From: Deltaproteobacteria bacterium | Lineage (GTDB): Bacteria; Myxococcota; Kuafuiibacteriia; Kuafuiibacteriales; Kuafuiibacteriaceae | Length of the DNA: 64,000 nt | Assembly: GCA_040218735.1 (NCBI GenBank) | Contig: JAVJQW010000070.1 | Coordinates: 160,001-224,000 of the forward strand | Direction of reading: 5' to 3' | Shown: one piece after another, positions 2,725 to 57,896 of the stretch | Layout of the letters: each line of letters starts with the position of its first letter | Position numbering within the stretch: the stretch's first letter is position 1 | Position numbers and translations under genes: made by a program | Notes under the pieces: generated by a model | The model's database searches: none | Seen by the model: the letters and a program-made list of their open reading frames with translations, nothing else | What the model was told of the DNA's origin: nothing

Positions 2725-2780
2725 CGGATGGCAGTGCTATCAGACGACCGATACCGCCGTCAAAATACGCTGAATTTTCC

Positions 2781-2809: not shown

Positions 2810-2823
2810 CCTGGTCCTCCGTT

Positions 2824-2896: not shown

Positions 2897-2960
2897 TCCT
2901 AAAATCGCTCCAGAGGTTCTTCACATGCGGCCCGGTGGCAAGAAGGACGAAGAGCGAGCC

Positions 2961-3146: not shown

Positions 3147-3194
3147 GACCCGCCTCGGGTGATTCGCGGTCCCAAGACCGGGTATCCTGCGTCC

Positions 3195-4121: not shown

Positions 4122-4134
4122 CCACACGCCCACG

Positions 4135-6259: not shown

Positions 6260-6295
6260 AGCCGACCCGCGGCCCGCCCCGCGCGCGGAATTCGT

Positions 6296-38460: not shown

Positions 38461-40719
38461 ATGAGCGAGTCCATCAACCTGATCCAGCGCGTCTACGAAG
38501 GCCTCGGCACCAAGCACGAGGCCGCCCGCAAGCACATCGGCCGGCCCCTGACCCTGGCCGAGAAGATCCTCACCGCCCACATGAAGGACCCTGCCGGCCA
38601 GGGCCCCCTCGAGCGCAAGAAGAGCTACGTCGATCTGTACCCGGACCGCGTCGCGATGCAGGACGCCACCGCCCAGATGGCGCTGCTCCAGTTCATGCAC
38701 GCCGGTATGGACCAGGCGGCCGTCCCGTCCACGGTCCACTGTGACCACCTCATCCAGGCCCACGTCGGCGCCGACAAGGACCTGCTCCGCGCGACCGACG
38801 AAAACAGCGAGGTCTACGACTTCCTCAAGACGGTCTCGGCCCGCTACGGCATCGGCTTCTGGAAGCCGGGCGCGGGCATCATCCACCAGGTCGTCCTCGA
38901 GAACTACGCGTTCCCGGGGGGCATGATGATCGGCACCGACTCCCACACCCCGAACGCCGGCGGCCTCGGCATGGTCGCGGTCGGCGTCGGCGGCGCGGAC
39001 GCGGTCGACGTCATGGTCGGCGACCCGTGGAACGTCCGCTGGCCGGGCGTCATCGGCGTGAAGCTGACCGGCAAGCTCTCCGGCTGGACCTCGCCGAAGG
39101 ACGTCATCCTCAAGCTCCTCGGCATCCTCACCGTGAAGGGCGGCACCGGGTCGATCGTCGAGTTCTTCGGCGACGGCTGCGCGTCGTTCTCCTGCACCGG
39201 CAAGGGCACGATCGCGAACATGGGCGCCGAGCACGGCGCGACCACGTCGGTCTTCCCGTTCGACGACTCCATGGCCCGCTACCTCCGCGCGACGAAGCGC
39301 GAGGACATCGCGGAGCTGGCCGAGAAACACGCCGCCGCGCTGCGCGCCGACGACGAGGTCTACGCGGACCCCGACCAGTACTACGACCGCGTCATCCACA
39401 TCGACCTCGACACCCTCGAGCCGCACCTCGTCGGGCCGCACACGCCGGACCTGGCGCGCCCGGTCTCGGGGATGAAGGACGCCGTGAAGAGCGAGGGCTA
39501 CCCGGACGACCTGCGCTACACGCTGATCGGCTCGTGCACGAACTCCTCGTACGAGGACATCGACCGCGCCGCGTCCATCGTGAAGCAGATGAACGCGGTC
39601 GGCGCGAAGATGAAGGCGCCCCTGATGGTGACGCCCGGCTCCGACCAGATCATGCAGACCATCGAGCGCGACGGTCTGATGAAGATCTTCGAGGACGCCG
39701 GCGCCACGGTCCTCGCGAACGCGTGCGGTCCGTGCATCGGACAGTGGAAGCGCGACGACATCGAGATGGGCGACCGCAACTCGATCGTCACCTCCTACAA
39801 CCGCAACTTCGCGGGGCGTAACGACGGGAACGCGGAGACGCTGTCCTTCATCGGCTCGCCGGAGACGACGGTGGCGATGGCGTACGGCGGCAAGCTCTCC
39901 TTCGACGCGGCGAACGACACCATCGACGTCGACGGCAAGGCCGTGAAGCTCCCGGTGCCGGAAGGCGCCGAGCTCCCGGCGAAGGGTTACGAGTTCCCGA
40001 TGGCCGGGTTCGAGGCCCCGCCCGCCGGCGGCGCGCCCGACGTGCAGGTGGATCCGAACAGCAACCGCATCCAGCTCCTCGAGCGGTTCGCCGCTTGGGA
40101 CGGCAAGGACCTCGAAGGCCTCCCGGTGCTGGTGAAGGCCGTCGGCAAGTGCACGACGGACCACATCTCGGCGGCGGGCAAGTGGCTCCGCTTCCGCGGG
40201 CACCTCGACAACATCTCCGACAACATGTTCCTCGGCGCGAACAACGCGTTCACCGACGAGCGCGGGACGGCGATGGACGTGCGTGACGGGACCGTCGACA
40301 AGGTCCCGGCGATCGCCCGCAAGTACAAAGCGGATGGCATCGGCTGGGTCGCGATCGGCGACGAGAACTACGGCGAGGGCTCGAGCCGCGAGCACGCGGC
40401 GATGTCGCCGCGGTTCCTCGGCGCCAAGGCGGTCATCGCCCGCTCGTTCGCGCGCATCCACGAGACGAACCTCAAGAAGCAGGGCGTCCTGCCGCTGACG
40501 TTCGCCGACCCGGCGGACTACGAGAAGATCGGCCCCAAGGACCGCATCAGCATCGAGGGGCTCGCGGACCTCGCGCCCGGGAAGAACGTGAAGGTCGTCG
40601 TCAAACACGAGGACGGCTCCACGGACACCTTCGAAGGCAAACACACGCTCTCGGAGCAGCACATCGCGTGGTTCAAAGCGGGCAGCGCGCTGAACCACAT
40701 CGCCAGCAACCAGGGCTGA
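38461..40719 (+). CDS. Aconitate hydratase, mitochondrial-type
   Basis: [73 protein letters not shown]. Confidence 0.93.
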
Positions 40720-41194: not shown

Positions 41195-42820
41195 TCAACC
41201 CTTGCGCTGGGCCTCACGCCAGCCGCTGAGCAGATCGGCGTGCAGGAGGGGCCCAGCCTCGCGGTCGAACGCGTAGGCCTCCATCACGATCTTCGGCGTG
41301 GTGTGCCCCTCGTCGAGCCGCAGCTTCGGCGCGACGCCGAGCACGGACCACGGTGAGCTCGACGCGAGCTCGCGCGCGAGGTCGAGCGCCTCGACGGCGT
41401 CGAGGGTCTCCGGCAGCTCGAGCGTGAGCGCCACGGCATGTGCGGTGCGCCGCCCGCCGCGGCGGACGTCCGTCGCGCCGCTCACGTGCCGGTAGGGGAC
41501 GCGCACCACGTGGCCGTCGTCGGTCTCGAGCTCCAGCACTCGCGTCCGGAAGTTTCGCACCTGCCCGGCGGCGTCGCCCACGCTGACGTGGTCGCCCACG
41601 GTGAACGGGCGCTCCGCGGAGATCATCAAGCCCGCGATGACGTCCTTGATCGCGCCCCACGACAGCGCGATCAGCGCGAGCACGACGAGGCCCGCGAGGC
41701 CCGCCGTCACGGTGCTCTCGGTCTGCGAGAGGCGGGTGAAGAGCCACACGCCGATCGCCGCCCAGCCCGTCGCCTCGACGAACACCCACAGCCGGCTCAA
41801 CACCAGCGCGAGCTGATGGTTCGCGCGCGCCATACGCCGCACGACGAGCGCGGCGATCCTGAAGACGATGAACGCAAACAGCAGGACGCGCAGGAACGAC
41901 CACTGGGCCTTCACGATTCGGGCGATGAGATCGCGGAGGCCCTCCTCCTGAGGCTCTGTCGGAGCCTCGCGCGGCGGCGGACCGACGAACGCCTCGCGCG
42001 CCCCGCCGTCGCGGACACCCGCGTCCGGGGGATCCGATTCGGCGGGCTCGGGGTCCTTCTTGGCGACGGCGACCTTGTCCCGCTTGGTGCGCGAGCGTGC
42101 CGGCCCCGCCGGGCGAGCGAGCTTGGGGCCCATCGTCGGCGGCGGGGGCACCGCGGACATCGGCGGACCGACGAAGGCGTCGATGTCGACCGGAGTCCCG
42201 CCGTCGCGGGCAGGCCCTGCGCGAAGGGCGCCGGAGGCGCTCGCGTCGTCCCCGGCGGTCGTGTCCGTCCAGGCCTTGCCGTCCGGCGCTCCTGGCGCGG
42301 CACGCGTGGGGCCAGCACCGTCGTTCGGCGGTGACGCATCCCCGTCGGCGTCGGCGCCGCGCGGAGCGCTCCCCTGCTCCCCGTCCGAGGCGCGCGGTGC
42401 GGTTTTGGCGGAGGGCGGCTGGTCCCCGTCGGTCGCGCCCCCCTCGCCTTCGCGAGGTGTGCCCTTCGCGGCGGGCGGCGTGTCGGAGGCGTCTCCCTCG
42501 GCGTCGCGCGAGGTGGCCTTGGCGGAGGGCGGCGCGTCGGAGGCGCCACCCTCGGCGTCGCGCGGTGTGGCCTTGCCGGAGGGCGGCGCGTCGGAGGCGC
42601 CCCCCTCGGCATCGCGCGGCGTGGGCGGCGTGTCCCCGTCGGCCTTCGGCGCGGAGCGCGCAGCCCCACCGCCGTCGCGGTCCGCGGGTGCTTCCTTCTT
42701 CGCGCGTGGACCGGCGGGAGGCGCGACCGAACCACCGTCGCGCGCGCCGCCGTCGGAGGGCTGCGCGTTCGCCGGAGCGGCGACGGCCCACAGCGCCACC
42801 ACGATCCACCACGCCCTCAC
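41195..42820 (-). CDS. MscS-family mechanosensitive channel with signal peptide and long low-complexity N-terminal extension
   Basis: GTG overlaps the upstream TGA; MRAWWIVVALWAVAAPANA signal; 3 TM then 'DVIAGLMISAERPFTVGDHVSVGDAAGQV...DGHVVRVPY' MscS signature. Confidence 0.8.
   Translation of the reverse strand: MRAWWIVVALWAVAAPANAQPSDGGARDGGSVAPPAGPRAKKEAPADRDGGGAARSAPKADGDTPPTPRDAEGGASDAPPSGKATPRDAEGGASDAPPSAKATSRDAEGDASDTPPAAKGTPREGEGGATDGDQPPSAKTAPRASDGEQGSAPRGADADGDASPPNDGAGPTRAAPGAPDGKAWTDTTAGDDASASGALRAGPARDGGTPVDIDAFVGPPMSAVPPPPTMGPKLARPAGPARSRTKRDKVAVAKKDPEPAESDPPDAGVRDGGAREAFVGPPPREAPTEPQEEGLRDLIARIVKAQWSFLRVLLFAFIVFRIAALVVRRMARANHQLALVLSRLWVFVEATGWAAIGVWLFTRLSQTESTVTAGLAGLVVLALIALSWGAIKDVIAGLMISAERPFTVGDHVSVGDAAGQVRNFRTRVLELETDDGHVVRVPYRHVSGATDVRRGGRRTAHAVALTLELPETLDAVEALDLARELASSSPWSVLGVAPKLRLDEGHTTPKIVMEAYAFDREAGPLLHADLLSGWREAQRKG
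42441..42620. repeat. 54-bp tandem repeat (3-4 copies) encoding TPRDAEGGASDAPPSxKA
   Basis: CCCTCG anchors at 42441, 42495, 42549 and 42603. Confidence 0.8.
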
Positions 42821-45800
42821 GCCAGCACCCCACGGTTCGCGAGCGCTTCGAGCACGAGCGGCTGCAGCAGCGGGTCGATCGACCACGCGCCGTTTTTGTC
42901 CGAGGCGAGCAGGCCCGCGCGTTCGAGATCGCCGAGGAGCCCCATCGCCTCCTCGCGCCCCACCCGGCAGATGCGCGCCATGCGCTGCGCCGTCACGGAG
43001 CGATGCAACATCACGTTCGCCAGCGCGGCGTACCACTTGAGCGGGAGCCGCATCAGGACGGAAGCGTCGGGCGCGGGCCGCACGGAGAGCGTCACCTGCC
43101 GCTCGCCCACGCTGACGATCGAGCGGCGCCACAGATCGATCGCGTCGCCGACGTTGCCGCGCGCGCGATCGTAGAGCGCCGTGAGGTGTCGGCGGTCCTC
43201 GAGCGAACGCACCGCCGAGAAGCGGCGGCGCTCGAAGTTGAGATCGAAGTCACTCGTCCGCTGCCGTAGCGAGAGCATCTCGATCATCTGCCGCTTCGCG
43301 AGCGGACGCAGGAACGCCGCACCGAGGAAGCTCCCCTGCAGCTGCAACAGCTCGTCGGCGTAGCGCCACGCGACGTCCGTCGAGGTGAGCAGGAAGAGGT
43401 GCCGATCCCCGAGGCGACGGAAGAGCTTCATCCACTGCTGCAGGGCCGCCAGGCCGCCGGGGGCGCGCTCGATCCATCGCCCGAGGTCGTCGATCAGCAC
43501 GACCGCGCCCGGCGGCAGCGCACGCAGGGCGCCCTCCGCGCTCTGGCCTTCACGCGCCTGCAGCGCCGACGTCACCGCTTCGTTCACCGCGTCCGGCGAC
43601 GCCGTACCTCCGGCGGGTGCGTTCACGCGCACTACGGTGGCCTCCGGGAGGAGCTCGCGCGCGACGATGTTCGCCATCGATGTCCGCCCGGAGCGCGGCG
43701 CACCGACGATCGCGATCGGGCCCGACGCGGTACCGCCCCAGCGTTCGACCATCTGCGTGACGCGCGCGATCTCCATCCGGCGGCCCACGAGCAGATCCGA
43801 CGTTTCGAGCGCAGCCCGCCCGAACAGGCGGCGGTAGATCAGCGGCAAGCTCGCTTGCACTTCGCTCTGCGGCGTGAGCGCCTCGCGCAGCTCGAGGAGC
43901 TCGTCGAGGAGCGTCCCGTCCGAAGTGCCCTTCACCCCGCGAACGCGACGCTGCGCGATTTCGTCGACCTTTCGCTCCACCCGCCCGCGGGCGCGCTCGA
44001 ACGCACGCGAGGCGCCGCGGACGATCGACTCACTCGGAATCTGCACACGCCCGGGCGACGACACCGCCGACGACCCCGCGCCGATAACGGCGTCCCGCGC
44101 GCCCTCCAGCGACCGCGCGGCGTCTTCGAGCAACCCGGCGCGCAGCGACACGACGTAGCCCTCGATGTCCTTGCGGGCCGCGGCGAGGCGCCCGAGGCGG
44201 TCCTCGACCACGCCACCGAGCGCGAGCGGGCCCGCGGCGTCCGGATCTTCGTCCTGCGAGGTCGCCGCTTGCTCCAGCTCGAACGCGACGAGGCGGACGC
44301 CGTCCACGAGCGCCTCTTGCGCGTCACGCACGCGGCGCGGCAGCTGATCGATCAACACGCGCGCCGGCTCGGCGAGCTGCTTTTCGACGAACACCTGCGC
44401 GAGGCGCCGCACCGGGTAGACGAGCTTCTCCCGCTCCGGGTTGCCCTCGGCGGCGGCGTCGAGGGCGCGTTCGGTCGAGGTCGTCACCTGCGACGGGAGC
44501 TTCTCGGCGGCGCGCGCGAGCGACGCGAGGAGGTTGTCGAACAACTCACGCGGCTCGGGGCGGTAGCGCTGCTCCCAGGTCGACCGCAGCTCGTCGGCCG
44601 CCGCGAGGAACGCCGCTTCGAAGTCGGGGCCCTCCTCCGCCTCGGCCTCGGCGGGCGCCTCGGGCTCGGCCGGCTCCGCGGGCGTCGACTCGGAGACCTC
44701 CTCCGCCTGCTCGCGGAGCTCGATCACCCGCTGCATGATCGCCTCGGCGCTCTCGATGGCGGCGATGGGCCCCTGCTCCAGCTCGCGCCGAACGCGCTGG
44801 AACAGCTGGTAGAGCGCGCGCCGTGAATCGATCGTCAGCGACGCGACGAGCAGATCGAGCTCCAGAGCCGAGACGATCGCGTCGTGCTGCTGCCGCCACA
44901 ACGCCGGGAGCTCGTCGAGCGCCTGCGCCGCCTTGCGGGACTGCCGCTGCTCCTTCGACGGCGACCACTCGGCCGCCTGTTCGACGATGTCTTCGCGCTC
45001 GAGCGCAGCGACGACCCGCTGCGCCGTTCGCGCCACAAGCAGGCGCGCGGAGCGGAACGACGCCTCGTTCGAGGACTCGAAGCGCTCCTTCACCCCCTCC
45101 GCCACGTCGAGGAGCGAGATCAGCTCCCGCGCGACGAGGTCCGAGAACGCCGCGACGTCGAGGGTCGACGACGGGTCGCTGTCGAGCTCCGCGAGCAGGT
45201 TCGCGAAGAACCGATCCGTGTCGTACGCGAGCCGACGAACGCGTCGAATGGCGTCGAAGCGGCGAACGCCGACCTGTCGCACCGCCTGATCGAGGTGCGC
45301 GAGGAACGGCGGCCCGAGGTGGTGCAAGGCAACTTGCCGCGCCGGGACGCGGCGCGGTGGCGGCCGTCGGTGCAGCCAGCGAATGCCGAGGCGCACGCGG
45401 AGCTTCTCCAGCCGTACGCCGAAGCGGTCGTTCGGTCGCGACTCCCAGTCGGCGGCGTCGGTCGGGACGAGCACCCACTCCGGCACCTCCTGCACCGCCG
45501 CCCACACGTCGCTCCGGAGCCGGTTGATTCCGTCGCGCGTCCGCTTCGGCCACGGGGGCTCGCGCCCGCCTACCCCGTCGCGCAGGGGGCGAATGCGTTC
45601 CATCGCCGACGTCGCGAAGCGGCTCTTCGCCCAGTCGACGAGACCGCGCGCCGCCTCTCGCCGACCGCCGCGACGGGCGAGCCGTCGCTCGAGCTGCGTG
45701 ATCTGCCGGACCTCGCGTGCCACCGCGTCGATGGCGACGTTCTCCTCGCGCATCGACGGCACCTGCACGCTGGTGTGGAAGCGCTCCGTCGCCTCGGTGA

Positions 45801-48099
45801 GCTGCTGCACCAAACGCCGCGTCACGGACTCCAGCTCGGGGATGGCGGGGGCGGCGACGTCGAGGATGTCGAACGTGTCCGTGTGCTCCTTCACGGCCGT
45901 CGCCTTCTCGAAGATGACCGGCGCCTCGGAGAAGATCTTCGCGGGGCGTACCAAGAGCGCGGTCCCGAGCGGCGCGAGCACGGCGTCGTTGCGCTGCACG
46001 AAGCCCTCGTCGTCGGTCGCCTCGAGCGCGTGCACCATGACGAGGTCCGCGAACTGCGACTCCTGGCGAATGCGGTCGGCGAGCGAGCCCTCCTCGGAGA
46101 GCGGCGCGAGCAGGACGGCCTCGGCCGTGACCCGTGCGTCCTCGATCATCGCTTCGAGCCGCTTCTTGGCGTCCGCCTCGTCGGCGCCGCGGCGGCCGTT
46201 CACGAGGATGCGCAGCTTCGAGTGTTTCCACTGCGCGCTGGTGAGGATCATGTGGGCGAGCGTCAGCATCAGCGGCCCGGTCGGGGCCTCGCCGTCCCAC
46301 CAGATGTCGATGCGCTCCCGTTTGCCGAAGCCGCGCGCGTCGTCGAGGCGGAGCATCAACACGCTGATGTCGAGCTCCAGCAGCCGCGTCGTCATGTCGG
46401 CGTACTCGATGCGGTGCCCCGCCTCGCGCGGCCACCCGAGGAGCACGACGTTCGACTCCATCCCTGCGAGCCCGAAGCTCGAGACCAGGTTCGGGATCGC
46501 GGTGTACGGGTTGTCGCAACCCTGCGAGCGCGCGAACAAGCCGGGGTACTCGGCCTCCAGCGCGGAGTCGACGCGCGCCTTCCGCGGCGCGCCCGGCACG
46601 AGGTCGAAGTGCGTGAGGATCCCGCGGTCGCCGACGATCGACTGGCCGAAGCGAATCATGTCGCGCCGACGCCGCCCGCGCGACAACAGGATCATGTTCG
46701 GACGCCAGTTGCGCGTGGCCGCGGTGGTGTCGGACTGCCTCAACCGCAAGAGCCCAGCGCGCACGACGGCCGACCACACGCCGCCCCACGTGTCACCCGA
46801 CTGCAAGACGAGTTGACGGCGCTTCAGGACCAAATAGATGAGGCCCATAATCACGATCGCGCCGAACATCGCGAGCGCGTTGATCTGGAACATCACCATG
46901 AAGCAGGCGACGGCGCCGAGCAGACTCACCCAGATCGGCACGCGGAACTGCGGGCGGAAGTCCGGCGACGCCCACCGCTCGAGTCCGCAGGCGAGGCACA
47001 AGAAGCCGTAGCAAGTGAGGAAGAACATCGAGATGATCGAGCCGACCAGCTCGAGCTCACCGACGAGGATGCCCGCCTCCGCGATCAGGATCGTGACGAC
47101 CAGCGCGACGCGCGGCTCCTCCCGCCCACGACCGAGGAACCGCGGGACGATGCCGTCGAACGCGAGCGCCTGGAGCGTCCGGGGCGCGCCAAGGATGCTG
47201 CCGAGCGCGCTGGAGAGCGTGGCGGCGAAGACCCCCGCGGTGACGAGGTGCGGCGACAGCGAGGTCCGCAGCAGGATGTTGTTGTCCTGCTGGAGCTGCT
47301 CGATCGTCGCCATGTCCGACAGGAGGAACGGCAGCCCGAGGTAGATGACCAAGCCGGTGACGATCGCGGCCATCGTGCCGATCGGGATCGCGCGCTTGGG
47401 ATCCTTGAGGTCCCCGGACATCCCGACGCCCGCCGTGAACCCGGTGACCGCCGGAAAGAACACCGCGAACACCGCCGCAAAAGCCGGCGCATTCGCAGGG
47501 GGCGTCAGCGCGACCGCGGTCTCCCCCGCGATCGCCGGGACGCCGGAACCCGCGACGATCGAGACCAACGACAGGACGATCGCCCCGAGCACGAACAGCT
47601 GCGACTTCAGCGCGATCGAAGTGCTGTAGAGCGTGAGGAGCGCCATCAGCACCAACGCGACGCTGCCGATGACGCGCAGGTTGTTCGTGTAGCCGTCGAC
47701 CGGCGTGAAGCCCGTCGCCGCGATGAACGCCTCCGCGAAACCGATGAGGTACAGACTCACACCGAGCGCGAGCGCGACGTACAGCGCCAGCCCGATCGCA
47801 CCGCCGATCGACAGGCCGAGCGAACGCGAGATGATGTAGTAGTTACCGCCCGTCTTGACGGTGTGGTTGGTCGCGATGGACGCGACCGAGAGCCCGGTCG
47901 TCACGCTGATCACGTGGGCGAGGAGCACCACGCCGATCGCTCCGCCGAGGCCGGCGTTGCCGACGACCCAGCCGAAGCGCTGGTACATGATCACGCCGAG
48001 GATCGTCAGGATGGACGGCGTGTAGACGCCGAGGAACGTCCCGAACTTGGCCTGTGAGGTCGCCTCGGCGGGCGTCGCTTCGACGGCGAGATCCTGCAC
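42817..48099 (-). CDS. Cation-chloride cotransporter (SLC12/CCC, APC superfamily) fused to a helical region and a C-terminal P-loop NTPase
   Basis: FGTFLGVYTPSILTILGVIMY, GGNYYIISRSLG, FFPAVTGFTAGVGMSGDL, NWRPN; Walker A-like GAPRSGRT and Walker B-like VLIDD near the C-terminus. Confidence 0.85.
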   Translation of the reverse strand: MQDLAVEATPAEATSQAKFGTFLGVYTPSILTILGVIMYQRFGWVVGNAGLGGAIGVVLLAHVISVTTGLSVASIATNHTVKTGGNYYIISRSLGLSIGGAIGLALYVALALGVSLYLIGFAEAFIAATGFTPVDGYTNNLRVIGSVALVLMALLTLYSTSIALKSQLFVLGAIVLSLVSIVAGSGVPAIAGETAVALTPPANAPAFAAVFAVFFPAVTGFTAGVGMSGDLKDPKRAIPIGTMAAIVTGLVIYLGLPFLLSDMATIEQLQQDNNILLRTSLSPHLVTAGVFAATLSSALGSILGAPRTLQALAFDGIVPRFLGRGREEPRVALVVTILIAEAGILVGELELVGSIISMFFLTCYGFLCLACGLERWASPDFRPQFRVPIWVSLLGAVACFMVMFQINALAMFGAIVIMGLIYLVLKRRQLVLQSGDTWGGVWSAVVRAGLLRLRQSDTTAATRNWRPNMILLSRGRRRRDMIRFGQSIVGDRGILTHFDLVPGAPRKARVDSALEAEYPGLFARSQGCDNPYTAIPNLVSSFGLAGMESNVVLLGWPREAGHRIEYADMTTRLLELDISVLMLRLDDARGFGKRERIDIWWDGEAPTGPLMLTLAHMILTSAQWKHSKLRILVNGRRGADEADAKKRLEAMIEDARVTAEAVLLAPLSEEGSLADRIRQESQFADLVMVHALEATDDEGFVQRNDAVLAPLGTALLVRPAKIFSEAPVIFEKATAVKEHTDTFDILDVAAPAIPELESVTRRLVQQLTEATERFHTSVQVPSMREENVAIDAVAREVRQITQLERRLARRGGRREAARGLVDWAKSRFATSAMERIRPLRDGVGGREPPWPKRTRDGINRLRSDVWAAVQEVPEWVLVPTDAADWESRPNDRFGVRLEKLRVRLGIRWLHRRPPPRRVPARQVALHHLGPPFLAHLDQAVRQVGVRRFDAIRRVRRLAYDTDRFFANLLAELDSDPSSTLDVAAFSDLVARELISLLDVAEGVKERFESSNEASFRSARLLVARTAQRVVAALEREDIVEQAAEWSPSKEQRQSRKAAQALDELPALWRQQHDAIVSALELDLLVASLTIDSRRALYQLFQRVRRELEQGPIAAIESAEAIMQRVIELREQAEEVSESTPAEPAEPEAPAEAEAEEGPDFEAAFLAAADELRSTWEQRYRPEPRELFDNLLASLARAAEKLPSQVTTSTERALDAAAEGNPEREKLVYPVRRLAQVFVEKQLAEPARVLIDQLPRRVRDAQEALVDGVRLVAFELEQAATSQDEDPDAAGPLALGGVVEDRLGRLAAARKDIEGYVVSLRAGLLEDAARSLEGARDAVIGAGSSAVSSPGRVQIPSESIVRGASRAFERARGRVERKVDEIAQRRVRGVKGTSDGTLLDELLELREALTPQSEVQASLPLIYRRLFGRAALETSDLLVGRRMEIARVTQMVERWGGTASGPIAIVGAPRSGRTSMANIVARELLPEATVVRVNAPAGGTASPDAVNEAVTSALQAREGQSAEGALRALPPGAVVLIDDLGRWIERAPGGLAALQQWMKLFRRLGDRHLFLLTSTDVAWRYADELLQLQGSFLGAAFLRPLAKRQMIEMLSLRQRTSDFDLNFERRRFSAVRSLEDRRHLTALYDRARGNVGDAIDLWRRSIVSVGERQVTLSVRPAPDASVLMRLPLKWYAALANVMLHRSVTAQRMARICRVGREEAMGLLGDLERAGLLASDKNGAWSIDPLLQPLVLEALANRGVLA

Positions 48100-48123
48100 G
48101 TGGGGGGTCCGCGGACCGGCGTA

Positions 48124-48945
48124 TCACCGCCAGTCGTTCTCGCCTTCGTCCACGACGCCGGGCGTATCGAGGACGATGCGCGGCATGTCGCAGCCGCGGA
48201 TGGTGATGTTCGGGACGTGGGCCGGATCGACGACGAGCGGGAGCCCCAGCGGGACGTCCTCCAGCCGCACGCGCTCGAACGCGAGTGAGGCCGGCTGCTC
48301 CGCGCGGCTGTCGACGTACAGCGCCTGCCCGCCCTGCGCCGCCGACGCGCGCGCCTTTCGGATCGTGACCCCGACGAGGCGGACCTCGGCGCCGGGTTTC
48401 AGGAAGAACGCCCCTCCCCGGGCGGCTTCGGTGTCCTCGACTTGGCTGTCCTCGAGCAGCAACGTCGCACCCGCGCCGACGCCGACGCCGCCGCCCTCGT
48501 CCGCGAAGGCGTGCCCGACGCGGAGGCGGTGCGCTTCGACGTTCCCGCCGTGCACGGTGAGCGCGCCGCCGAACGTCGAGCGCGCGTTCTGGACGTGGAC
48601 GTTGTGGAGCCGAACGTCGCCCGCGCGGACCTCGACGCCCTCGCCGCCCTCGATCGCCAAGGAGGACAGCTCGACGGCCCCGTCCACCTCGATCGAGACG
48701 GCGCCCTCGCCCAGCTCGATGCGCGTCAGATCGCCCGCGCCGCGTAAGGCACACGCGCGACGAATCGCGACCGGACCGTCGTAGCGGCCCGGCGCAATCT
48801 CCAGCACCGCGCCGATCGGCAGCTCGTCGAGGGTCTCGCCCAGCGAACGACCGGAGTCGTCCGGAAAGCGCAGGACGGATGTTTGCGATGCCTCGCTCAC
48901 AGGGACGCGGGTGCCACGGTGGCACGACTTGGGGGTCCGTTCCAC
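48124..48945 (-). CDS. Right-handed beta-helix (pectin-lyase-like fold) protein
   Basis: 'GAVLEIAPGRYDGPVAI' plus repeated GGA/GGG beta-helix turns; start uncertain. Confidence 0.65.
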   Translation of the reverse strand: MERTPKSCHRGTRVPVSEASQTSVLRFPDDSGRSLGETLDELPIGAVLEIAPGRYDGPVAIRRACALRGAGDLTRIELGEGAVSIEVDGAVELSSLAIEGGEGVEVRAGDVRLHNVHVQNARSTFGGALTVHGGNVEAHRLRVGHAFADEGGGVGVGAGATLLLEDSQVEDTEAARGGAFFLKPGAEVRLVGVTIRKARASAAQGGQALYVDSRAEQPASLAFERVRLEDVPLGLPLVVDPAHVPNITIRGCDMPRIVLDTPGVVDEGENDWR

Positions 48946-50653: not shown

Positions 50654-51331
50654 GTGCGCCGCATCTGGCGCCACCTCCGGGTCCCGCTCGTCGCGCTGCA
50701 CGTCGTCGCGATCGGGCTGATGGCCACACCCGACCCCGGGCCTGGCCTTCAGCGGAGCGCCTGGAAGAACCCCACCGTCCAGGCCGAAATCCAGGCGTGG
50801 GCCGAGCGGTTGAACGGTTTCGGTGTCGAGGTCACGCCCAAGGCGCTCGAAGCCTGGGCCTGGGCGCGCGCGAAGGCGCTGCACCGCCTGCGGGATCGGC
50901 TCGTCCGACCGTTCCGTCCGTACCACGACTACGTCGGCATCCGGCAGCCGTGGAACATGTTCGTCGCGCCGCACCGCAACCCGGCGGTGCTCGGCGTCGA
51001 CATCCTCGTCGACGATGAATGGACCCCGCTCTACCGCACGCGCTCCGACGTCTACGACTACCGACGCGCCTTCTTCGACCACGACCGTATCCGCGCGATG
51101 TTGTTCCGCTACGGCTGGCCGTCCTACCGACACACCTACAACGACTTCGCGCGCTGGCTCGCCAAACAGATCGCCGTCGACGTCCCCGAGGCCACCAAGG
51201 CCCGCATCTTCTACACGCGCTACCGCACGCGCTCGCCCGACGAAGTGAAGGACGGCACCGAAGTGAAGACGGTGCGCGACCAGTACGTCATCTTCGACCT
51301 CGCCGTCTTCCGACCGGAGCCTTCGCCGTGA
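50654..51331 (+). CDS. Membrane-anchored hypothetical protein, partner of the HTTM protein
   Basis: N-terminal TM; 'GIRQPWNMFVAP' motif; stop overlaps the next ATG. Confidence 0.7.
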   Translation: MRRIWRHLRVPLVALHVVAIGLMATPDPGPGLQRSAWKNPTVQAEIQAWAERLNGFGVEVTPKALEAWAWARAKALHRLRDRLVRPFRPYHDYVGIRQPWNMFVAPHRNPAVLGVDILVDDEWTPLYRTRSDVYDYRRAFFDHDRIRAMLFRYGWPSYRHTYNDFARWLAKQIAVDVPEATKARIFYTRYRTRSPDEVKDGTEVKTVRDQYVIFDLAVFRPEPSP

Positions 51332-52278
51332 TGCGCTGGTACCGATCCCTCGTCGCGTACCTCGACGAACGCGAGCGCGGCGAGGCCCTCGCCCTCTTCC
51401 GAATCTTCGTAGGGCTCGCGTTGGTGGTCGACCTCGGCGCGACGGCCCCCGACGGCGTGCTCTCGGCGATCTGGATCGACATCCACCACGGCGGCTACCG
51501 CCCGCTGGGTTTTGGTACCTTCCTCGTGCAGGCCCTCGGCGGCCCCACGCCTACGGTGATCTGGGGCCTCTTCGGCGCGACCGTCGCGGCGGGCCTCGCG
51601 ATGATCGTCGGGCTCGGCGGGCGCTTCACCGCGCTGATCGCCGCGCAGGGGTTCTTGGCGCTCTCCGGTCTCAACGGCCACACCCGCGGCAGCTACGACG
51701 CGCTGCTGTCGAACCTCCTCTGGCTGAACGTCCTCGCGAACGGCACCGCGACGTGGTCCCTCGACGCGAAGCTCTTTACCGGCCGCTGGTCCACGGACCG
51801 CCTCGTCACGTCGTGGCCACGCCGCCTCGGGATCCTGCAACTCGTCTTGCTCTACTTCTCGACGGGCCTGCACAAGATCTCCGCCCATTGGACGCCGGCG
51901 GGCGGCTTCTCGGCGCTCTACTACATCCTGCAGCAGCCCTCGTGGCACCGCGTCGACATGGCGTGGGCCGCGTACGTCTATCCGCTCACGCAGCTCGGCA
52001 CCGCGATCACCTGGGCCTTCGAGGTCGGCGCCCCGATCCTGCTGTTCATGCTGTGGCGGGAGCGTCGGCGCGGCCGGCGGAACAACTACCGAAGGTGGTT
52101 CGCGCTCGTCGGCGTGCTGCTGCACACCGGGATCTTCGTCTTCATGGAGGTGGGACCGTTCACGGTCATCATCTGGTCCCTGTATCTGTGCCTGTTCACC
52201 CCGGACGAGGTGCGGCGGCTCTTCGACGCTACGGTTTATCTGAGTCCCGCTGAAGGACGAAGCTGTAGCTCGGCTTGA
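51331..52278 (+). CDS. HTTM-domain membrane protein (gamma-carboxylase/SdpB-like)
   Basis: 'LALFRI', 'WSLDA', 'LQLVLLYFSTGLHK..HW..G', 'LLHTGIFVFMEVGPF'. Confidence 0.78.
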   Translation: MRWYRSLVAYLDERERGEALALFRIFVGLALVVDLGATAPDGVLSAIWIDIHHGGYRPLGFGTFLVQALGGPTPTVIWGLFGATVAAGLAMIVGLGGRFTALIAAQGFLALSGLNGHTRGSYDALLSNLLWLNVLANGTATWSLDAKLFTGRWSTDRLVTSWPRRLGILQLVLLYFSTGLHKISAHWTPAGGFSALYYILQQPSWHRVDMAWAAYVYPLTQLGTAITWAFEVGAPILLFMLWRERRRGRRNNYRRWFALVGVLLHTGIFVFMEVGPFTVIIWSLYLCLFTPDEVRRLFDATVYLSPAEGRSCSSA

Positions 52279-53335
52279 GCTGCTCGGGCGCGATGTCCTG
52301 CTCGATCTTCACGTAGCCGCCCGCCTCGATCGTGATCTTGTGCGCGGCCTTCGGGTCGAGGTTCGGGATCTTCAGCGTGCGCTTGCCGGGGTAGGTCTGG
52401 CCGTCCACGACGATCTGCGCCGCCACCGGCTGCACTTCGATGCCGACCGTCAGCAGACCCGGCTTGCTCAGCGGGTCGAGGTCGATGTCGACGCGCTCGG
52501 CTTCCTCGCCCGCCTTCACCTTCGCGTTGAGTGTGTACGGCGCGTGGCCGTCCAGCGTCACGAGGATCTCGTGGTCGCCCTCGGGCAGCGTCAGCTTCAC
52601 GGGCGTGGTCTGCTCGTAGGCCTTGCCGTCGACCGTCAGCGACGCGCCGTCCGGCGTGGTGTGCAGCTGGATGACGCCGCGCTCCTTGTTCGTGAGCGTC
52701 ACGAACAAGAGGCCGCCGATGATCAGGATCAGGAGCGCGCCGACCCCGAGCTTCGCGAGGCGTCGCTTCGCGACCTCGGCGGGGGACGCCTTCGGGAGGA
52801 TGTCGCCCGTCGCCGCACCGGCCGCGCCCACGTTGGCGCTCGGCGGCGGCTTCGGCGGCTGCATCCACAGCAGCGTGTTCTCACCGAAGCCGGGCTGGCC
52901 GACCCGCGGGCCGTCCGGTCCGGGCGGCTGCGCGCCCTGCGGCGGGGTCCCCTGCGCCATCGGCGCGGTCTGGCCGCCACCGGCCATGCTCATCGGCTCC
53001 GTCGGCGCGACGCCGCCGGGCGGCTGCGAAGCGGGATCCCGCGCAGCGCCGGAGACGACCTGCTGCGGGCCTGTACCGATCTGGTCCAACGAGACGTTGC
53101 CCTCGAACGAGGGCAGCGCAGGCATCGCGCGCGTGGGCGCGTCACCGATGTCCTCGCCCGAGTCCGGGCCGATGACGATCTGGTGCGCGACGGCGCTCCC
53201 GCCTCCGCTCTTCTTCGCCTGCATGCGCTGGCGCGCTTCACGCAGCGCCTTCAATTCGTCGTTGCTCAGCGGGTCGAGCAGCGTGCGGTCGTCACTCGGC
53301 GGCTGTCGTTTGCCACCACCTTGGCCGTCGCTCAT
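52229..53335 (-). CDS. PEGA-domain membrane protein
   Basis: Disordered N-terminus, TM segment, 'TTPDGASLTVDG...TPVKLTLPEGDHEI' PEGA domains. Confidence 0.8.
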   Translation of the reverse strand: MSDGQGGGKRQPPSDDRTLLDPLSNDELKALREARQRMQAKKSGGGSAVAHQIVIGPDSGEDIGDAPTRAMPALPSFEGNVSLDQIGTGPQQVVSGAARDPASQPPGGVAPTEPMSMAGGGQTAPMAQGTPPQGAQPPGPDGPRVGQPGFGENTLLWMQPPKPPPSANVGAAGAATGDILPKASPAEVAKRRLAKLGVGALLILIIGGLLFVTLTNKERGVIQLHTTPDGASLTVDGKAYEQTTPVKLTLPEGDHEILVTLDGHAPYTLNAKVKAGEEAERVDIDLDPLSKPGLLTVGIEVQPVAAQIVVDGQTYPGKRTLKIPNLDPKAAHKITIEAGGYVKIEQDIAPEQLKPSYSFVLQRDSDKP

Positions 53336-53388
53336 CGGGAAAAACTCCGATCCGTTGGATACCATATGTCCAGGTCTATCGACAGGCT

Positions 53389-54483
53389 TTACGGATCGAA
53401 CACCGAAAGCCGGTCGACTGCCCCAAACGCTTGCACCGTCGCCCCGCCCGGCAGGTAGATGCGATCGCCGACCACGGCGGCGCCCGTCCCGTGGATCGCC
53501 GGGTCCATCGGCGCGAGGACATCCCACGCCCCGCGCGCGACGTCGAACGCCTCGACCTCCACGAACAAATTCGTCGGCGGGTTCGCCCCATTCCCCTCAC
53601 CGCCGAACACAAACAGGCGCCCGTCGTAGAAAGCCCCGGCCGTCCCGGCGCGCCCGGTCGGCATCGCGGGGCCCGTCGACCAGGTCGCCGTCGCGATGTC
53701 GTAGATGTCGAGGCGCGGCACGTGGGAGCTGATACCCCCGGCGCGCCCGCCCGCGACGTAGAGCTTGCCGTCATGGATGTCGCCCGCGCCGTGGTCCATC
53801 GCGCGCGGGATCGGCGCGAGGGGACGCCAGGTCTGCGTCTTCGGATCGTAGACGTCGAAGTCCGCGGTGGGCACCGCGTTCTTCAGACCGCCGACGACGT
53901 AGATCTCGCCGTCGTGCACGCCGACCACCGACGAGCCGCGCGCGCGCTGGGGCTCCATCGCGGTCTGCTCCGTCCAGCCGTCGGTGTCCGGGTCGTAGAC
54001 GAACACCCGACCGTCGTCCTGGAACCCCGCGACGAGAAAACCAACGACGTAGATCTTGTCGTCCACGACCGCCGCGTTCGCGTGGTGGAAGTTGGCGGGG
54101 AAGTCGGCGACGGAGCGCCACTGGTCGGTGCTCGGATCGTACGCCTCGACGCGCGCGCCGAAGCCGTTCGTCCCGTAGCCGCCGAGGACGTAGACCTCGC
54201 CGCGCAGCGCGACGACCGCGGTCTCCTGCAGCGGCGCGAGGAGCGAGGGCCCCTCGGACCACGTCCCGGTCGATGGTTCTTCGCCCCCGTCGCGCACACC
54301 GCCGTCGTGATCCGGAGGGAGGGGCCCGGCGTCGCGCGGCGGTCCGGCGTCGCGCGTCCCGCCATCACGCACGGCACCATCGAGGGACGGCCCCGCGTCG
54401 CGCGCGCCGGGATCGAAGTCGTCGTCGGCGTCGGTGCCCGAGCAGGCGACGAGGAGGCAGAGCGGGAGCAGACGGATCTTCAC
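53389..54483 (-). CDS. Kelch-repeat lipoprotein
   Basis: Lipobox LVAC; six Kelch repeats (VYVLGG, IYVVG, IYVVGG, LYVAGG, LFVFGG, IYLPGG). Confidence 0.88.
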   Translation of the reverse strand: MKIRLLPLCLLVACSGTDADDDFDPGARDAGPSLDGAVRDGGTRDAGPPRDAGPLPPDHDGGVRDGGEEPSTGTWSEGPSLLAPLQETAVVALRGEVYVLGGYGTNGFGARVEAYDPSTDQWRSVADFPANFHHANAAVVDDKIYVVGFLVAGFQDDGRVFVYDPDTDGWTEQTAMEPQRARGSSVVGVHDGEIYVVGGLKNAVPTADFDVYDPKTQTWRPLAPIPRAMDHGAGDIHDGKLYVAGGRAGGISSHVPRLDIYDIATATWSTGPAMPTGRAGTAGAFYDGRLFVFGGEGNGANPPTNLFVEVEAFDVARGAWDVLAPMDPAIHGTGAAVVGDRIYLPGGATVQAFGAVDRLSVFDP

Positions 54484-54553
54484 ACCCCCTTGGACCGTGC
54501 GGCGTCGCTTCACCCGCCAACCGTAGGCCGAGGTCGGCCACGAATGCGACCGG

Positions 54554-57500: not shown

Positions 57501-57799
57501 TCGCGAACCTCGACGGTGAAGGTCGTCGTCCCCGCGACGGTGGGGACCCCTTCGATCGTGACACCGCTCAGCACGAGGCCCTCGGGGAGCGCGCCGGCCA
57601 CCACCGACCAGGTGGGCGTCCCGACGCCGCCCAAAGACGCGAGCGTCGCGCGGTACGCCACGCCCACGGTGCCGTCCGGGAGTGAAGCCGTGTCGATCGC
57701 GACGGGCGTGGGCACGTCCGACGGCGTGTCGTCCCCGACGGGGTCACCGCCACCGCAGGCCACGAAGAGGAGCGGCACCAACCCGGTGACTTTGCGCAT
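54554..57799 (-). CDS. Lipoprotein with about 6 putative-Ig (He_PIG-like) repeats and a TolB-like beta-propeller
   Basis: Lipobox FVAC; repeats 'WSVVAGALPEGL..GTPT..GT..F'; 'LSPDGSKLAY' and 'WSPDGSRIAF'. Confidence 0.82.
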   Translation of the reverse strand: MRKVTGLVPLLFVACGGGDPVGDDTPSDVPTPVAIDTASLPDGTVGVAYRATLASLGGVGTPTWSVVAGALPEGLVLSGVTIEGVPTVAGTTTFTVEVRDDSGEARAELSILVLPADDVPDPLVITTPRLEAAAYDTPYTQTIEARGGTEAGYTWSIPAGRLPDGVQLESDGTPATMLVGTPTRGGSFSITIQVRDDAERTAERTYQLLVTGGELLIRPNQIDDLYVATPVAIAFEISGGTAGTYAWSVVDGALPAGLTASTTAEPFTLTGTPTTAGTFDFTLEARATNSSARRRYTGMIFEPLGIDLQGASGSCFVETPYLATLAATGGAPGPHTWTVVTGSLPPGLSLDGGGGVVSGTPTQAGTYPFAIEVEDTNGVTAQGTMTIEVRRALAIQTPSVPAASVGVPYTTAIEVVGGTAPYVFTIVDGGLPLGITLEPGGTPSLAALVGTAGSPGSYAFTLHVEDATGETDSALFDLVVVEPIQITTTSLDGRPACEPGIQTIETTGGVPNGPRSWSVVSGALPPGWVLADGQLYGRAGTPGTYAFRVRVVDLATMLSDERSYTVAVALGTQPPRSAVIVGALLDPSRNEVFEVDLCRTAGVPPSRVSPTGTSGSVRASALSPDGSKLAYVADFAVSGRNDLTFLFLDATPRSSATHLLGSIPSSSNTRPPLEWTADSRAVLTASSMPGARLYVSNVEDPTVSSTPVNIDPPGFNTGRQNLAPDGHGVLLETGSPSGDHIFYVDFMDFAAPPNVVALGAGGAFSLDPDWSDDARYALALGPSILNVIDVRASPPQRFVVHPDALRQGADFSPNLPHRLAFVVQAPSGDRAVHITTLTGSSFTPPVPLHAPLPAGQGSETARWNPQGTHVAFCAQIDRPGLYDLYIADMTQPLPATPVRVSNPSAGSDVECRDSRPAKSYLWSPDGSRIAFTQRDGVTGNDHAWVADLSGGPPFDLTQATPGAGAIPIAAFLDMRWTSDGARLVTWGDFTGGGHFDLVVMHLDSTTPSLPVRLWPNRAGRIWDDRWRLLRDDAGLVFVGDVVTPGRNEAYVVDFVDGGVTPPTRLHALPPSGDGVEDVFVR

Positions 57800-57896
57800 C
57801 AGTCGGTGAGATGGCCGGCCCCCTCCCTTTTCGTCGTTTTTTCTCCGGGCCCGAGTCCATTGCCCCTGAACATCCTTTCCTTGTATCGCTCGCAGC

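Follow-up and report, generated by a model that had tools for sequence, protein, structure and literature searches.

A 64,000-nucleotide window of a myxococcotal genome (contig JAVJQW010000070.1, positions 160,001 to 224,000) encodes a 1760-aa protein composed of four parts: an SLC12/cation-chloride cotransporter (CCC) permease with its cytosolic domain (aa 1-734), a 650-aa helical arm, an Orc1/Cdc6-like AAA+ domain and a C-terminal winged helix. It is followed by a gene for a small MscS-like protein (mini-MscS). We find that the arm, the AAA+/winged-helix module and the mini-MscS gene are conserved as a unit, whether the module is joined to a CCC or a Na+/H+ exchanger in one protein, placed behind trkA-trkH or standing alone. 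This switch-plus-channel pair appears to be a control unit of cellular salt and turgor that has not been described before. Judging from sequence and structural models, we consider it probable that in the fusion the CCC, the rigid arm and the Orc1/Cdc6-like switch, with a docked mini-MscS, link a tension-sensitive channel to K+/Na+ transport. The features of the locus are given in Table 1.

Table 1 Features of the CCC-AAA+ fusion locus, in positions of the window
Feature	Position	Strand	Evidence
Upstream gene, 273 aa, beta-helix-like	48124..48945	-	GC3, conservation
Fusion gene ORF, 1760 aa, uninterrupted	42817..48099	-	ORF call and translation
CCC/SLC12 transmembrane permease domain, aa 15-455	46735..48057	-	PF00324, KCC4/NKCC1 alignments, ion-site residues
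CCC cytosolic C-terminal domain, aa 456-734, from RNWRPN	45898..46734	-	PF03522, KCC alignment
Helical arm, aa 735-1384	43948..45897	-	AF2 model; no specific fold match
Orc1/Cdc6-like AAA+ base, lid and winged helix, aa 1385-1760	42820..43947	-	AF2, Foldseek, profile against PDB
Walker A GAPRSGRT, aa 1466-1473, Arg (R1472) for the usual Lys	43681..43704	-	translation, family alignment
Walker B VVLIDD, then LGRWIER, aa 1533-1545	43465..43503	-	translation, family alignment
GTGA overlap of fusion stop (TGA) and MscS-like start (GTG)	42817..42820	-	sequence
MscS-like N-terminal part, aa 1-290: signal-peptide-like start VRAWWIVVALWAVAAPANAQ, then low-complexity, P/A/D/G-rich	41951..42820	-	translation
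MscS-like core, aa 291-541, and stop	41195..41950	-	PF00924, family profile

The initial annotation had described the fusion as one uninterrupted ORF of 1760 aa, and the reading frame holds up as such. Third-position GC (GC3) lies between 0.87 and 0.97 in 17 of 17 consecutive 100-codon blocks and, because it is uniformly high in all of them, the ORF is read as one continuous coding frame. Complete fused ORFs of 1638-1828 aa were found in other genomes (n = 44), and identity with the fusion over aa 760-1760 is 38-72% in 19 homologues with lengths of 1711-1805 aa. Furthermore, a 13,069-nt contig from an independent sponge-metagenome run spans positions 42556-48945, so that the entire fusion ORF is included; the indels reported on this contig are in-frame only and all lie within the neighbouring MscS-like gene. 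The search for spanning contigs also gave contig joints with sides of 20-27 letters, which came from other organisms or repeats and were given no weight. High-GC DNA can yield long spurious ORFs, such as the 1057-aa ORF on the opposite strand, and one could suppose that assembly or annotation had wrongly joined two or three genes. No support for this was found, and we count such an artefact, to which we attach virtually no credence, as already refuted by the uniform GC3, the 44 full-length orthologues in other assemblies, the 19 long homologues and the independent contig across the entire ORF.

The SLC12/CCC transmembrane motifs noticed earlier were borne out by a match of the AA_permease family (PF00324, Pfam) to aa 25-426 (E 3.8e-45) and, among solved structures, by matches of aa 1-734 to KCC4 (E 2.6e-80), NKCC1 (E 1.1e-71) and NCC (E 1.6e-55). 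Beyond RNWRPN the KCC alignment carries on through the cytosolic domain as far as aa ~665, and the SLC12 family (PF03522, Pfam) matches aa 593-664 with 27.0 bits, at its cut-off of 27, in agreement with a CCC cytosolic domain beginning at NWRPN. Against TIGR00930 (NCBIfam) the CCC part scores 371 bits and does not reach the curated cut-off of 953.4; from its sequence we class it as a distant member of the superfamily branch, outside this eukaryote-trained subfamily. NKCC1, NCC, KCC1-4 and the plain prokaryotic CCCs of ~730 aa have the permease fold and cytosolic domain in common with the fusion, but none of the known CCCs (TC 2.A.30) carries a 1000-aa arm and AAA+ module, whereas the fusion has both. 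Eukaryotic CCCs are regulated via phosphorylation by WNK-SPAK. The CCC C-terminal domain of Methanosarcina acetivorans has a structure, as recorded by an entry in the reference list of PMC4301019.

Ion-site residues of the CCC part (T32, I33, Y117, P216, T219, A293, S296, S297 and Y364) were mapped by means of printed KCC alignments and NKCC1 table coordinates. Relative to the human NKCC1 residues given in PMC9713717, the Na+, K+ and Cl2 sites are retained as S296/S297/A293, Y117/T219/P216 (together with I33) and Y364, respectively. The K+-site asparagine is replaced by threonine (T32); in NKCC1 the ligand is the main-chain carbonyl of this asparagine, according to the same paper. The two serines of the Na+ site in TM8 of NKCC1 are likewise present in the fusion, whereas the printed KCC alignments show Gly-Ala at that place. 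The ion-site residues are invariant in 66 relatives (44 fused, 8 with CCC and arm, 14 with CCC only), although the scan patterns included the TM6 motif, whose conservation is partly a product of locus selection. We infer that the CCC part is a cotransporter of the Na+/K+/Cl- type, similar to the animal Na-K-Cl transporters.

The last 376 aa of the fusion were modelled with high confidence (pLDDT 92.6, pTM 0.90; AF2). The top eight Foldseek matches of this C-terminal module were Cdc6/Orc1 proteins (E 3e-11 to 2e-9), the best of which (E 3e-11 to 3e-10) aligned from the base through the lid to the winged helix, along ~400 columns; CED-4 was also among the matches (E 9e-9). Pfam places an AAA match at aa 1464-1578 (E 1.6e-4), and the module profile against the PDB found 2qby_A (E 1.3e-5) and a MarR/SlyA-type winged helix (E 2.4e-4). 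The region had been proposed to be a P-loop NTPase with a wHTH-like tail; the Cdc6/Orc1 fold, winged helix included, bears this out, and the LVGR..E, GAPRSGRT and VLIDD motifs were all found as given. Orc1/Cdc6 initiators (2qby, 2v1u, 1fnn, 7jgr_G) have the same base-lid-winged-helix layout as the module, together with the LVGR..E start, the Walker A and B positions and the lid-helix motif, at 13-18% sequence identity. In contrast to these initiators, the module lacks the sensor-2 arginine, carries an arginine in Walker A, is tethered to a transporter and has as its predicted partner a channel rather than DNA. Its genomic context contains no pointer to replication.

Across 114 modules, the Walker A lysine position is occupied by K in 103, R in 9 and M in 2, and the arginine is, on this alignment, a trait of the fusion's lineage and not of the module family. 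The initial annotation had taken this arginine as a sign of nucleotide sensing or scaffolding; the residue is there, but the argument does not carry over to the family, in which 103 of the 114 modules have lysine. The first acid of Walker B is variable (H in 32, D in 30, N in 24 and E in 13, with D next). The sensor-2 arginine is missing: the fusion copy reads GNVG, 87 of the 114 modules read GN[IPV]G, and an arginine at this position occurs in a single GNLR copy among the motifs listed. Because of the missing sensor-2 arginine and the variable Walker B acid, and not because of the Walker A arginine, the module is better seen as a switch than as a motor, and we infer an Orc1/Cdc6-like nucleotide switch. 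Given the Walker A arginine, ATP handling in the fusion copy may depart from the family norm. W1542 and R1545 are part of the family's signature WWER motif after Walker B, where the signature column holds Trp in 110 of 114 modules, and an LH[KR]-type histidine is found in the winged helix of at least 99. C-terminal sensor repeats (TPR/WD40/LRR) are absent, with no Pfam repeat family matched and the protein ending at the winged helix.

Between transporter and module lies the arm, noted previously as ~650 aa of helical sequence and modelled accordingly as long helices throughout (pLDDT 87.8, pTM 0.81; AF2). Foldseek against the PDB returned nothing at E<=0.001 for this region, the best match having E 0.06 and TM scores being 0.15 or lower. 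A wide VIA-align search, whose result covers mainly model residues 350-598, gave generic four-helix bundles only, with a designed bundle at the top (Z 14.3). The modelled arm matches no specific known fold, and fold novelty is not claimed. Mean column identity of the arm is 21% across 45 sequences.

The gene downstream of the fusion encodes a 541-aa product (whole-gene GC3 0.90) in which PF00924 is matched with E 1.2e-12 (48.2 bits; cut-off 20.2), so that the reported overlap of the fusion stop with the GTG of an MscS gene is correct. The two genes, joined by GTGA, are read as translationally coupled. The core has three hydrophobic helices, then a beta-domain and then an alpha/beta domain with a PW motif, and a family profile built from 31 partners aligns with residues 30-241 of E. 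coli MscS (E 9e-16). The order of TM1-TM3, beta-domain and alpha/beta domain is common to E. coli MscS and mini-MscS; compared with E. coli MscS, YnaI, MscK and MscM, mini-MscS has a shorter core (217-273 aa in Bacteroidota) and a PW motif of its own and sits behind an AAA+ module. The fusion's partner copy adds a low-complexity head of ~290 aa, not mentioned in the initial annotation, that is presumably periplasmic. Strain differences in this N-terminal part are in-frame indels of 6, 3 and 6 nt. In the mini-MscS family the TM3 consensus is rich in Leu, in contrast to the Gly/Ala-rich TM3 of E. coli MscS, and for this reason channel activity of mini-MscS is not assured. The neighbour had also been taken for the cell's hypo-osmotic release valve. 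Its membership of the MscS family stands, but the genome holds 12 other MscS-family matches, and the partner is therefore better viewed as a specialised paralogue than as simply the release valve.

The linkage between module and channel gene was surveyed in genome and metagenome contigs, and mini-MscS lies within 300 nt of the module in 107 of the 122 judgeable loci. In genome contigs this holds, on the same strand, for 38 of 44 judgeable loci, with the gene further off in two and missing in four; in metagenome contigs the figures are 69 of 78, three and six. Since four genome and six metagenome loci have no channel gene, pairing cannot be obligatory. With Pfam alone the partner went undetected in L001, L004, L005, L041, L071 and L075, where the HMM from the 31 partners recovered it. 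One carrier of the pair, Agaribacillus aureus BMA12 (L057), is culturable. Complete loci that encode a CCC without the ATPase (CCC only, or CCC with arm) contained no mini-MscS (0/22). Conservation of the mscS linkage among homologues, anticipated from the single locus, is thus confirmed, but it is not tied to the cotransporter as had been supposed: the mini-MscS gene tracks the ATPase module.

The fusion's own genome carries four paralogous modules, each with its own mini-MscS partner (4/4), in four settings: the CCC fusion, a Na+/H+-exchanger fusion, behind trkA-trkH and standing alone. Mini-MscS was likewise present at 20 of 20 further module loci of the same phylum, three of which have the module fused to Na_H_Exchanger, three have TrkA and TrkH directly upstream and two more have TrkA upstream; 11 of the 20 showed no transporter family upstream in the frames scanned. 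All 19 genomes sampled from the fusion's taxonomic family contain the module. Its relatives form 1515 representative clusters at E<=1e-30, and 80 of the best 150 representatives are at least 1600 aa long.

On the other side of the fusion, the upstream 273-aa gene ends 25 nt before the fusion ORF and has a GC3 of 0.89. Pfam assigned it no family. L001, L003, L004 and L005 have it in the same place, directly 5' and on the same strand (42-47% identity), and in the fusion's subclade, but only there, it probably opens the operon. A look-up of expression data listed no RNA for the locus. An Atlas feature search pointed to right-handed beta-helix clusters (score 0.95), which we treat as a lead only.

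Complex prediction supports in silico the physical pairing with the channel that had been suggested for the locus. Module and mini-MscS gave ipSAE values of 0.79, 0.79 and 0.78, against 0.00 for the best of three controls, with a partner pLDDT of at least 71 and at least 83% of contacts in common between runs. The score is the model's own confidence and was obtained with a monomeric channel fragment (251 aa) and a cut arm; of 157 solved complexes 116 attain the tool's calibration mark, as do 2 of 215 mismatched pairs, rough counts here, where our own alignments were used. We know of no solved MscS-AAA+ complex, and for this reason we judge it unlikely that the score stems from the model's memory. 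The AAA+/winged helix is predicted to dock on the cytoplasmic alpha/beta domain of mini-MscS through aa 1545-1549 (opened by R1545), winged-helix residues 1687-1698 and 1710-1712 and the C-terminal tail, facing channel residues 458-460, 483-497 and 518-537 (renumbered from the 251-aa fragment). Both signature motifs, WWER following Walker B in the module and PW in mini-MscS, take part in the predicted contact. A covariation analysis of this interface gave no signal, since both motif columns are near-invariant, with W/W in 97 of 114 pairs. MscS proteins normally form heptamers, and the mismatch in symmetry between a CCC dimer and an MscS heptamer counts against an explanation based on docking.

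In the mechanism that we favour, mini-MscS would report membrane tension, and hence turgor, and the ATP/ADP state of the docked nucleotide switch, together with the arm, would relay this to the attached K+/Na+ transporter. Low turgor would raise salt uptake, restored turgor would switch it off, and upon downshock the channel could vent. The reverse direction, in which the switch gates the channel, would be equally possible. We hold more tentatively, at somewhat less than an even chance, that module and mini-MscS form a portable turgor-to-transport transducer for a CCC, a Na+/H+ exchanger or TrkAH, in which mini-MscS would sense membrane tension, the docked switch would read its state and the arm would set the activity of whichever K+/Na+ transporter is fused or co-encoded. 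A cytoplasmic nucleotide-binding module also governs a K+ transporter in the nucleotide-regulated systems TrkA/RCK-gated TrkH and KefC with KTN domains, and the AAA+ module may by analogy act likewise; it is itself found in a trkA-trkH operon. Those systems use a Rossmann-type RCK ring, whereas here an AAA+/winged helix sits on an arm with an MscS-type partner.

The switch might instead regulate the channel, with arm and AAA+ domain forming a nucleotide-dependent gate or lid for mini-MscS and the transporters merely co-located. In its favour, the channel gene accompanies the module regardless of which transporter is present, stand-alone modules included, more than half of the phylum loci (11/20) have no transporter family in the scanned upstream frames, and it is module and channel that are predicted to touch. 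We nevertheless consider this reading unlikely, as the module is mostly transporter-fused in the sampled relatives, where lengths of at least 1600 aa predominate (80 of the best 150), and is tightly operonic with trkAH, and a rigid 650-aa arm would hardly be maintained by co-localisation alone.

Two further explanations start from the fold of the module. Its nearest folds are DNA-binding initiators and its winged helix matches MarR/SlyA-type regulators, as would be expected of a membrane-tethered DNA-binding regulator that controls transcription by transporter state. This is improbable, however, given that the winged-helix surface (1687-1698, 1710-1712) and C-terminal tail are occupied in the predicted channel contact and that the usual neighbour is a membrane protein. 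Slightly less probable again is an abortive-infection or defence device, in which a STAND-like NTPase, on sensing a phage cue, would kill or arrest the cell by opening ion pathways. The hhhhDD Walker B and the conserved winged-helix histidine recall STAND NTPases, and a paralogue in L165 has a weak nSTAND_NTPase5 match; against this, PADLOC assigned no family to any of the three proteins (fusion, channel and upstream gene product), the ion sites of the transporter do not vary, the C-terminal sensor repeats are absent, and the module occurs in operons with trkA-trkH and in all sampled genomes of the family, a distribution that looks vertical and housekeeping-like.

In the open-access literature we found no paper on a fusion of CCC and AAA+ or on MscS paired with AAA+. 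How bacterial cells perceive turgor and use it in feedback on K+ uptake has long been an open question, and CCC transporters, medically central in animals, are almost unstudied in bacteria. In this compact two-gene system, genetic linkage and prediction tie a transporter, a putative nucleotide switch and a mechanosensitive-channel homologue to one another, and the switch-channel pair plugs into three unrelated cation transporters, which makes a specific mechanism testable. If module and mini-MscS do form a portable turgor-to-transport transducer, they would give bacteria an equivalent, assembled from unrelated parts, of the way in which volume sensing controls animal NKCC/KCC.

The fusion gene described by the initial annotation, a cation-chloride cotransporter (CCC) joined to a P-loop NTPase, proved to be genuine on the evidence of uniform GC3, full-length relatives and an independent metagenome contig that spans it, and the sequence features listed for it were all found where that annotation had placed them in the window. 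GC3 lies at 0.87-0.97 in 17 of 17 successive 100-codon blocks of the 1760-codon ORF, indicating that the whole frame is coding, without sign of a join. The database holds 19 proteins of 1711-1805 aa that are 38-72% identical to aa 760-1760 of the fusion protein. The independent contig, from a sponge metagenome, spans window positions 42556-48945 and differs from it at 63 letters; the three reported indels (6, 3 and 6 nt, in frame) all fall within the low-complexity stretch of the adjacent MscS-like gene, a P/A/D/G-rich head in which strains from other metagenomes vary in this way. This 541-aa gene opens with a GTG that overlaps the TGA of the fusion ORF (GTGA). On the other side, a 273-aa gene ends 25 nt ahead of the fusion gene; it occupies the same position at the related loci L001, L003, L004 and L005 (42-47% identity) and is absent from Bacteroidota loci. 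Its Atlas features (score 0.95) provide a lead only, to a right-handed beta-helix protein. The aconitase, HTTM, PEGA, Kelch-repeat and He_PIG/PKD genes nearby seem to have no link to the fusion.

Positions of the fusion gene, its domains, its neighbours and related loci
Feature	Sequence	Position	Strand	Remarks
Aconitase gene	window	38461-40719	+	
P/A/D/G-rich head of the MscS-like gene	window	41951-42760	-	near-repeats (…DAEGGASDAPPS…)
Fusion ORF	window	42817..48099	-	
AA_permease	fusion protein	aa 25-426		Pfam, E 3.8e-45
SLC12	fusion protein	aa 593-664		Pfam, 27.0 bits, exactly the cut-off
AAA, AAA_22, AAA_16	fusion protein	around aa 1437-1578		Pfam, weak matches
273-aa gene	window	48124-48945	-	no Pfam family
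HTTM-domain, PEGA-domain, Kelch-repeat and He_PIG/PKD proteins	window	51019-57943		419, 432, 414 and 1129 aa
Na+/H+-exchanger fusion region (L164)	contig C41 of the window's genome (G000)	4074-8959		then a 245-aa mini-MscS; 603-aa gene without family directly upstream
trkA-trkH-module-mini-MscS operon (L166)	contig C33 of G000	1491-8219		overlapping starts
Stand-alone arm-module gene	L112	4897-8259		1120 aa
Stand-alone arm-module gene	L080	1630-4515		961 aa
Fusion gene as two adjacent ORFs	L009	5986-11342		602+1183 aa
Fusion gene as two adjacent ORFs	L106	3317-7683		723+733 aa

Residues 1-734 match the solved structures of KCC4, KCC2, KCC3 and KCC1 (E ~1e-80 to 1e-77), NKCC1 (1e-71) and NCC (1e-55), and the alignment continues beyond RNWRPN, reaching into the cytosolic domain; the NCBIfam K-Cl cotransporter model gives E 1.4e-110 with 371 bits, far under its curated 953. 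In the ion-site passages of PMC9713717, human NKCC1 holds Na+ through S613, S614, A610 and the carbonyls of L297/W300, K+ through Y383, T499, P496 and the carbonyls of N298/I299, and Cl2 through Y686. We mapped these listed ligands using printed KCC alignments and NKCC1 coordinates, with the same offset at the start and end of every aligned block, to S296, S297 and A293 (Na+), Y117, T219, P216 and T32/I33 (K+) and Y364 (Cl2) of the fusion protein. The fusion protein thus has a Ser-Ser pair at the Na+ site, where the KCCs of the printed alignments have Gly-Ala. None of the relatives compared (44 fused, 8 CCC+arm, 14 CCC-only) departs from the mapped residues, although for the TM6 motif this is partly a selection effect, because that motif was among the patterns used to gather loci. 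Judged by these residues, the permease appears to retain every site of a carrier of the Na-K-2Cl type, a stoichiometry that we infer.

The middle 650 residues are poorly conserved (21% mean column identity), and their model (pLDDT 87.8, pTM 0.81) consists of very long helices and a few short strands. Foldseek returned no match to them at E<=0.001, and VIA-align gave only generic four-helix bundles, within model residues 350-598. We call this region a helical arm, one that, as modelled, appears to have no specific known counterpart, the VIA-align comparison bearing mainly on residues 350-598. The last 376 residues were modelled with AlphaFold from an alignment of the window with 45 loci (pLDDT 92.6, pTM 0.90). 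Foldseek against the PDB placed Cdc6/Orc1 proteins on top (7jgr_G, 3.2e-11; 2v1u_A, 1fnn_A, 7tji_I, 2qby_A) over about 400 aligned columns, followed by RFC, RuvB and CED-4. The sequence profile likewise matched 2qby_A (E 1.3e-5) and, at positions 288-364, a MarR/SlyA-type winged helix (E 2.4e-4). This agreement bears out the NTPase with a wHTH-like tail of the initial annotation and narrows it to an Orc1/Cdc6-like AAA+ domain with lid and winged helix. In a comparison of 114 modules the Walker A position is Lys in 103, Arg in nine and Met in two; the Arg copies belong to the window, its five high-GC relatives L001-L005, the paralogue L164 and the loci L083/L084, making the Arg a lineage trait. 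Other traits extend to the whole family: sensor 2 is without Arg (GN[IPV]G in 87 of the 114), the first Walker B residue varies (H/D/N/E) before an Asp, and at least 99 carry a winged-helix His of the LH[KR] type. Together they are suggestive of a slow ORC/STAND-type switch, not a motor.

Scanning a single genome for each species yielded 527 relatives. Among the best 79 loci, 44 hold a complete fusion ORF (1638-1828 aa), 14 a plain CCC (726-794 aa) and eight a CCC with arm and no ATPase (1309-1345 aa). The complete fusions, among them that of the cultured Agaribacillus aureus (L057), come mostly from Bacteroidota, with several from Myxococcota and one from a Chlorobi-labelled MAG. In a quick IQ-TREE phylogeny built on the CCC region (67 rows, eight of them high-GC and of deviant composition), CCC-only and CCC+arm forms nest within fused clades, and well-supported branches force at least three changes under midpoint rooting without an outgroup; the simplest reading of this midpoint-rooted tree would be repeated loss of C-terminal parts. 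The split genes at L009 and L106 could be frameshifts, broken copies or genuine splits; the second ORF of L009 has a faint Intein_splicing match (E 0.0013). At Bacteroidales loci (L011, L014, L048, with L019 and L029 by ORF size; L031, L032, L035, L053, L054), CCC+arm (~1311 aa) and CCC-only genes are closely followed by a 685-702-aa ADP-forming acyl-CoA-synthetase-like gene (CoA_binding + Succ_CoA_lig + ATP-grasp_5), which also occurs a few kb behind some full fusions; this may be plain synteny. Searched against 1.84 billion representatives, the module profile matched 4763 proteins at E<=0.001, of which 1515 reach E<=1e-30; of the best 150, 80 are at least 1600 aa long and 20 measure 900-999 aa, 17 of which begin with Met and comprise arm and module only.

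Pfam PF00924 occurs in 33 ORFs directly behind the fusion gene, and a more sensitive family HMM was built from 31 small MscS-like partners. Of 47 module loci on genome contigs, 38 have a partner within 300 nt on the same strand, two have one further off, four have none by the family HMM (L020, L022, L046, L077) and three have too little DNA after the gene; the corresponding figures for 80 loci on metagenome contigs are 69, three, six and two. The same HMM found a partner in none of the fetched flanks of 22 complete CCC-only or CCC+arm loci, and at L138 and L157 a stand-alone arm-module gene and partner precede a Na+/H+ exchanger with a Usp domain. The partner is therefore tied to the ATPase module and not to the cotransporter: the linkage of fusion and mscS proposed in the initial annotation is conserved, but its CCC half does not carry it. 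One exception to the pairing is L112, where the 6 kb behind the module gene contain no mini-MscS; the L080 contig ends 247 nt past its module gene.

The window's genome (11.6 Mb, 70 contigs) itself contains four modules, each with its own mini-MscS behind it on the same strand. Besides the CCC fusion, L164 encodes a 1383-aa protein whose N-terminal part is a Na_H_Exchanger domain and which shares the module (E 2e-9, 24% identity across 329 aa), bearing Arg in Walker A (GSGRT) and in sensor 2 (GNLR). L166 is an overlapping series of trkA (479 aa), trkH (498 aa), a stand-alone module (1009 aa) and mini-MscS (258 aa), an order repeated at L167, L169 and L181 from other genomes; L165 is a stand-alone module of 1115 aa. 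Twelve further matches to the MscS family in this genome mark the partners as specialised paralogues. The module occurs in 38 of 301 sampled genomes of the phylum and in 19 of 19 in the window's family. All 20 further module loci from other genomes of the phylum have the partner; in three the module is fused to Na_H_Exchanger (L173-L175), in three more TrkA and TrkH frames immediately precede it (L167, L169, L181) and another two show TrkA upstream (L168, L176), while no transporter family was found in the frames scanned at the rest. The gene pair is modular and associates with CCC, CPA and Trk transporters.

The window's partner has an MscS beta-domain (E 1.2e-12), and the profile of 31 partners aligns with residues 30-241 of E. 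coli MscS (E 9e-16), spanning three membrane helices, beta-domain and alpha/beta domain. The third helix is Leu-rich in the consensus, whereas that of E. coli MscS is Gly/Ala-rich; channel activity is accordingly plausible rather than certain. Bacteroidota partners comprise 217-273 aa only; that of the window adds a signal-peptide-like start and about 290 residues of P/A/D/G-rich sequence. Such a start followed by three helices would leave the C-terminal domain on the cytoplasmic side, next to the module. We predicted the complex of fusion-protein aa 1085-1760 with residues 101-251 of the 251-residue partner core (aa 291-541). Three runs gave ipSAE 0.79, 0.79 and 0.78, the best of three controls 0.00, with partner pLDDT of at least 71 and at least 83% of contacts common to the runs. 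In the tool's calibration, 116 of 157 solved complexes reach the mark, as do 2 of 215 mismatched pairs; for custom alignments such as these the counts are a rough guide. The prediction supports, and does not show, binding of the module to the partner's cytoplasmic part. In the module, confident contacts are predicted for aa 1545-1549, directly after the WWER motif behind Walker B, for 1576-1584, for two stretches of the winged helix (1687-1698 and 1710-1712) and for the five C-terminal residues; in the partner they fall on core residues 168-170, 193-207 (PW motif) and 228-247. The two motifs are signatures of the family, their W being present in 110 of 114 modules and 100 of 114 partners; covariation is not visible across the interface because both motifs are too conserved. 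The predicted docking agrees with the genomic rule that partner follows module.

The module is predicted to dock on the cytoplasmic domain of its partner; we propose that the partner would report membrane tension and that the nucleotide switch and arm would relay this signal to the transporter. The main rival reverses the direction, the switch gating the channel. Other readings are much less likely: that the winged helix binds DNA; that the pair serves in defence, for which PADLOC was negative; or that the arrangement is an artefact, assembly error being excluded by the long relatives in other genomes and the independent contig across the ORF.

A literature search, with subscription journals outside its coverage, found no description of a CCC-AAA+ fusion or an MscS-AAA+ pair. 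New here are four module-partner pairs co-resident in one genome, the trkA-trkH operon form of the pair, the 0/22 count of partners at CCC loci without the module, the restriction of the Walker A Arg to a lineage and a complex prediction, run against controls, that specifies the interface. If tension is relayed from partner to transporter as proposed, salt uptake and release would be coordinated with turgor.
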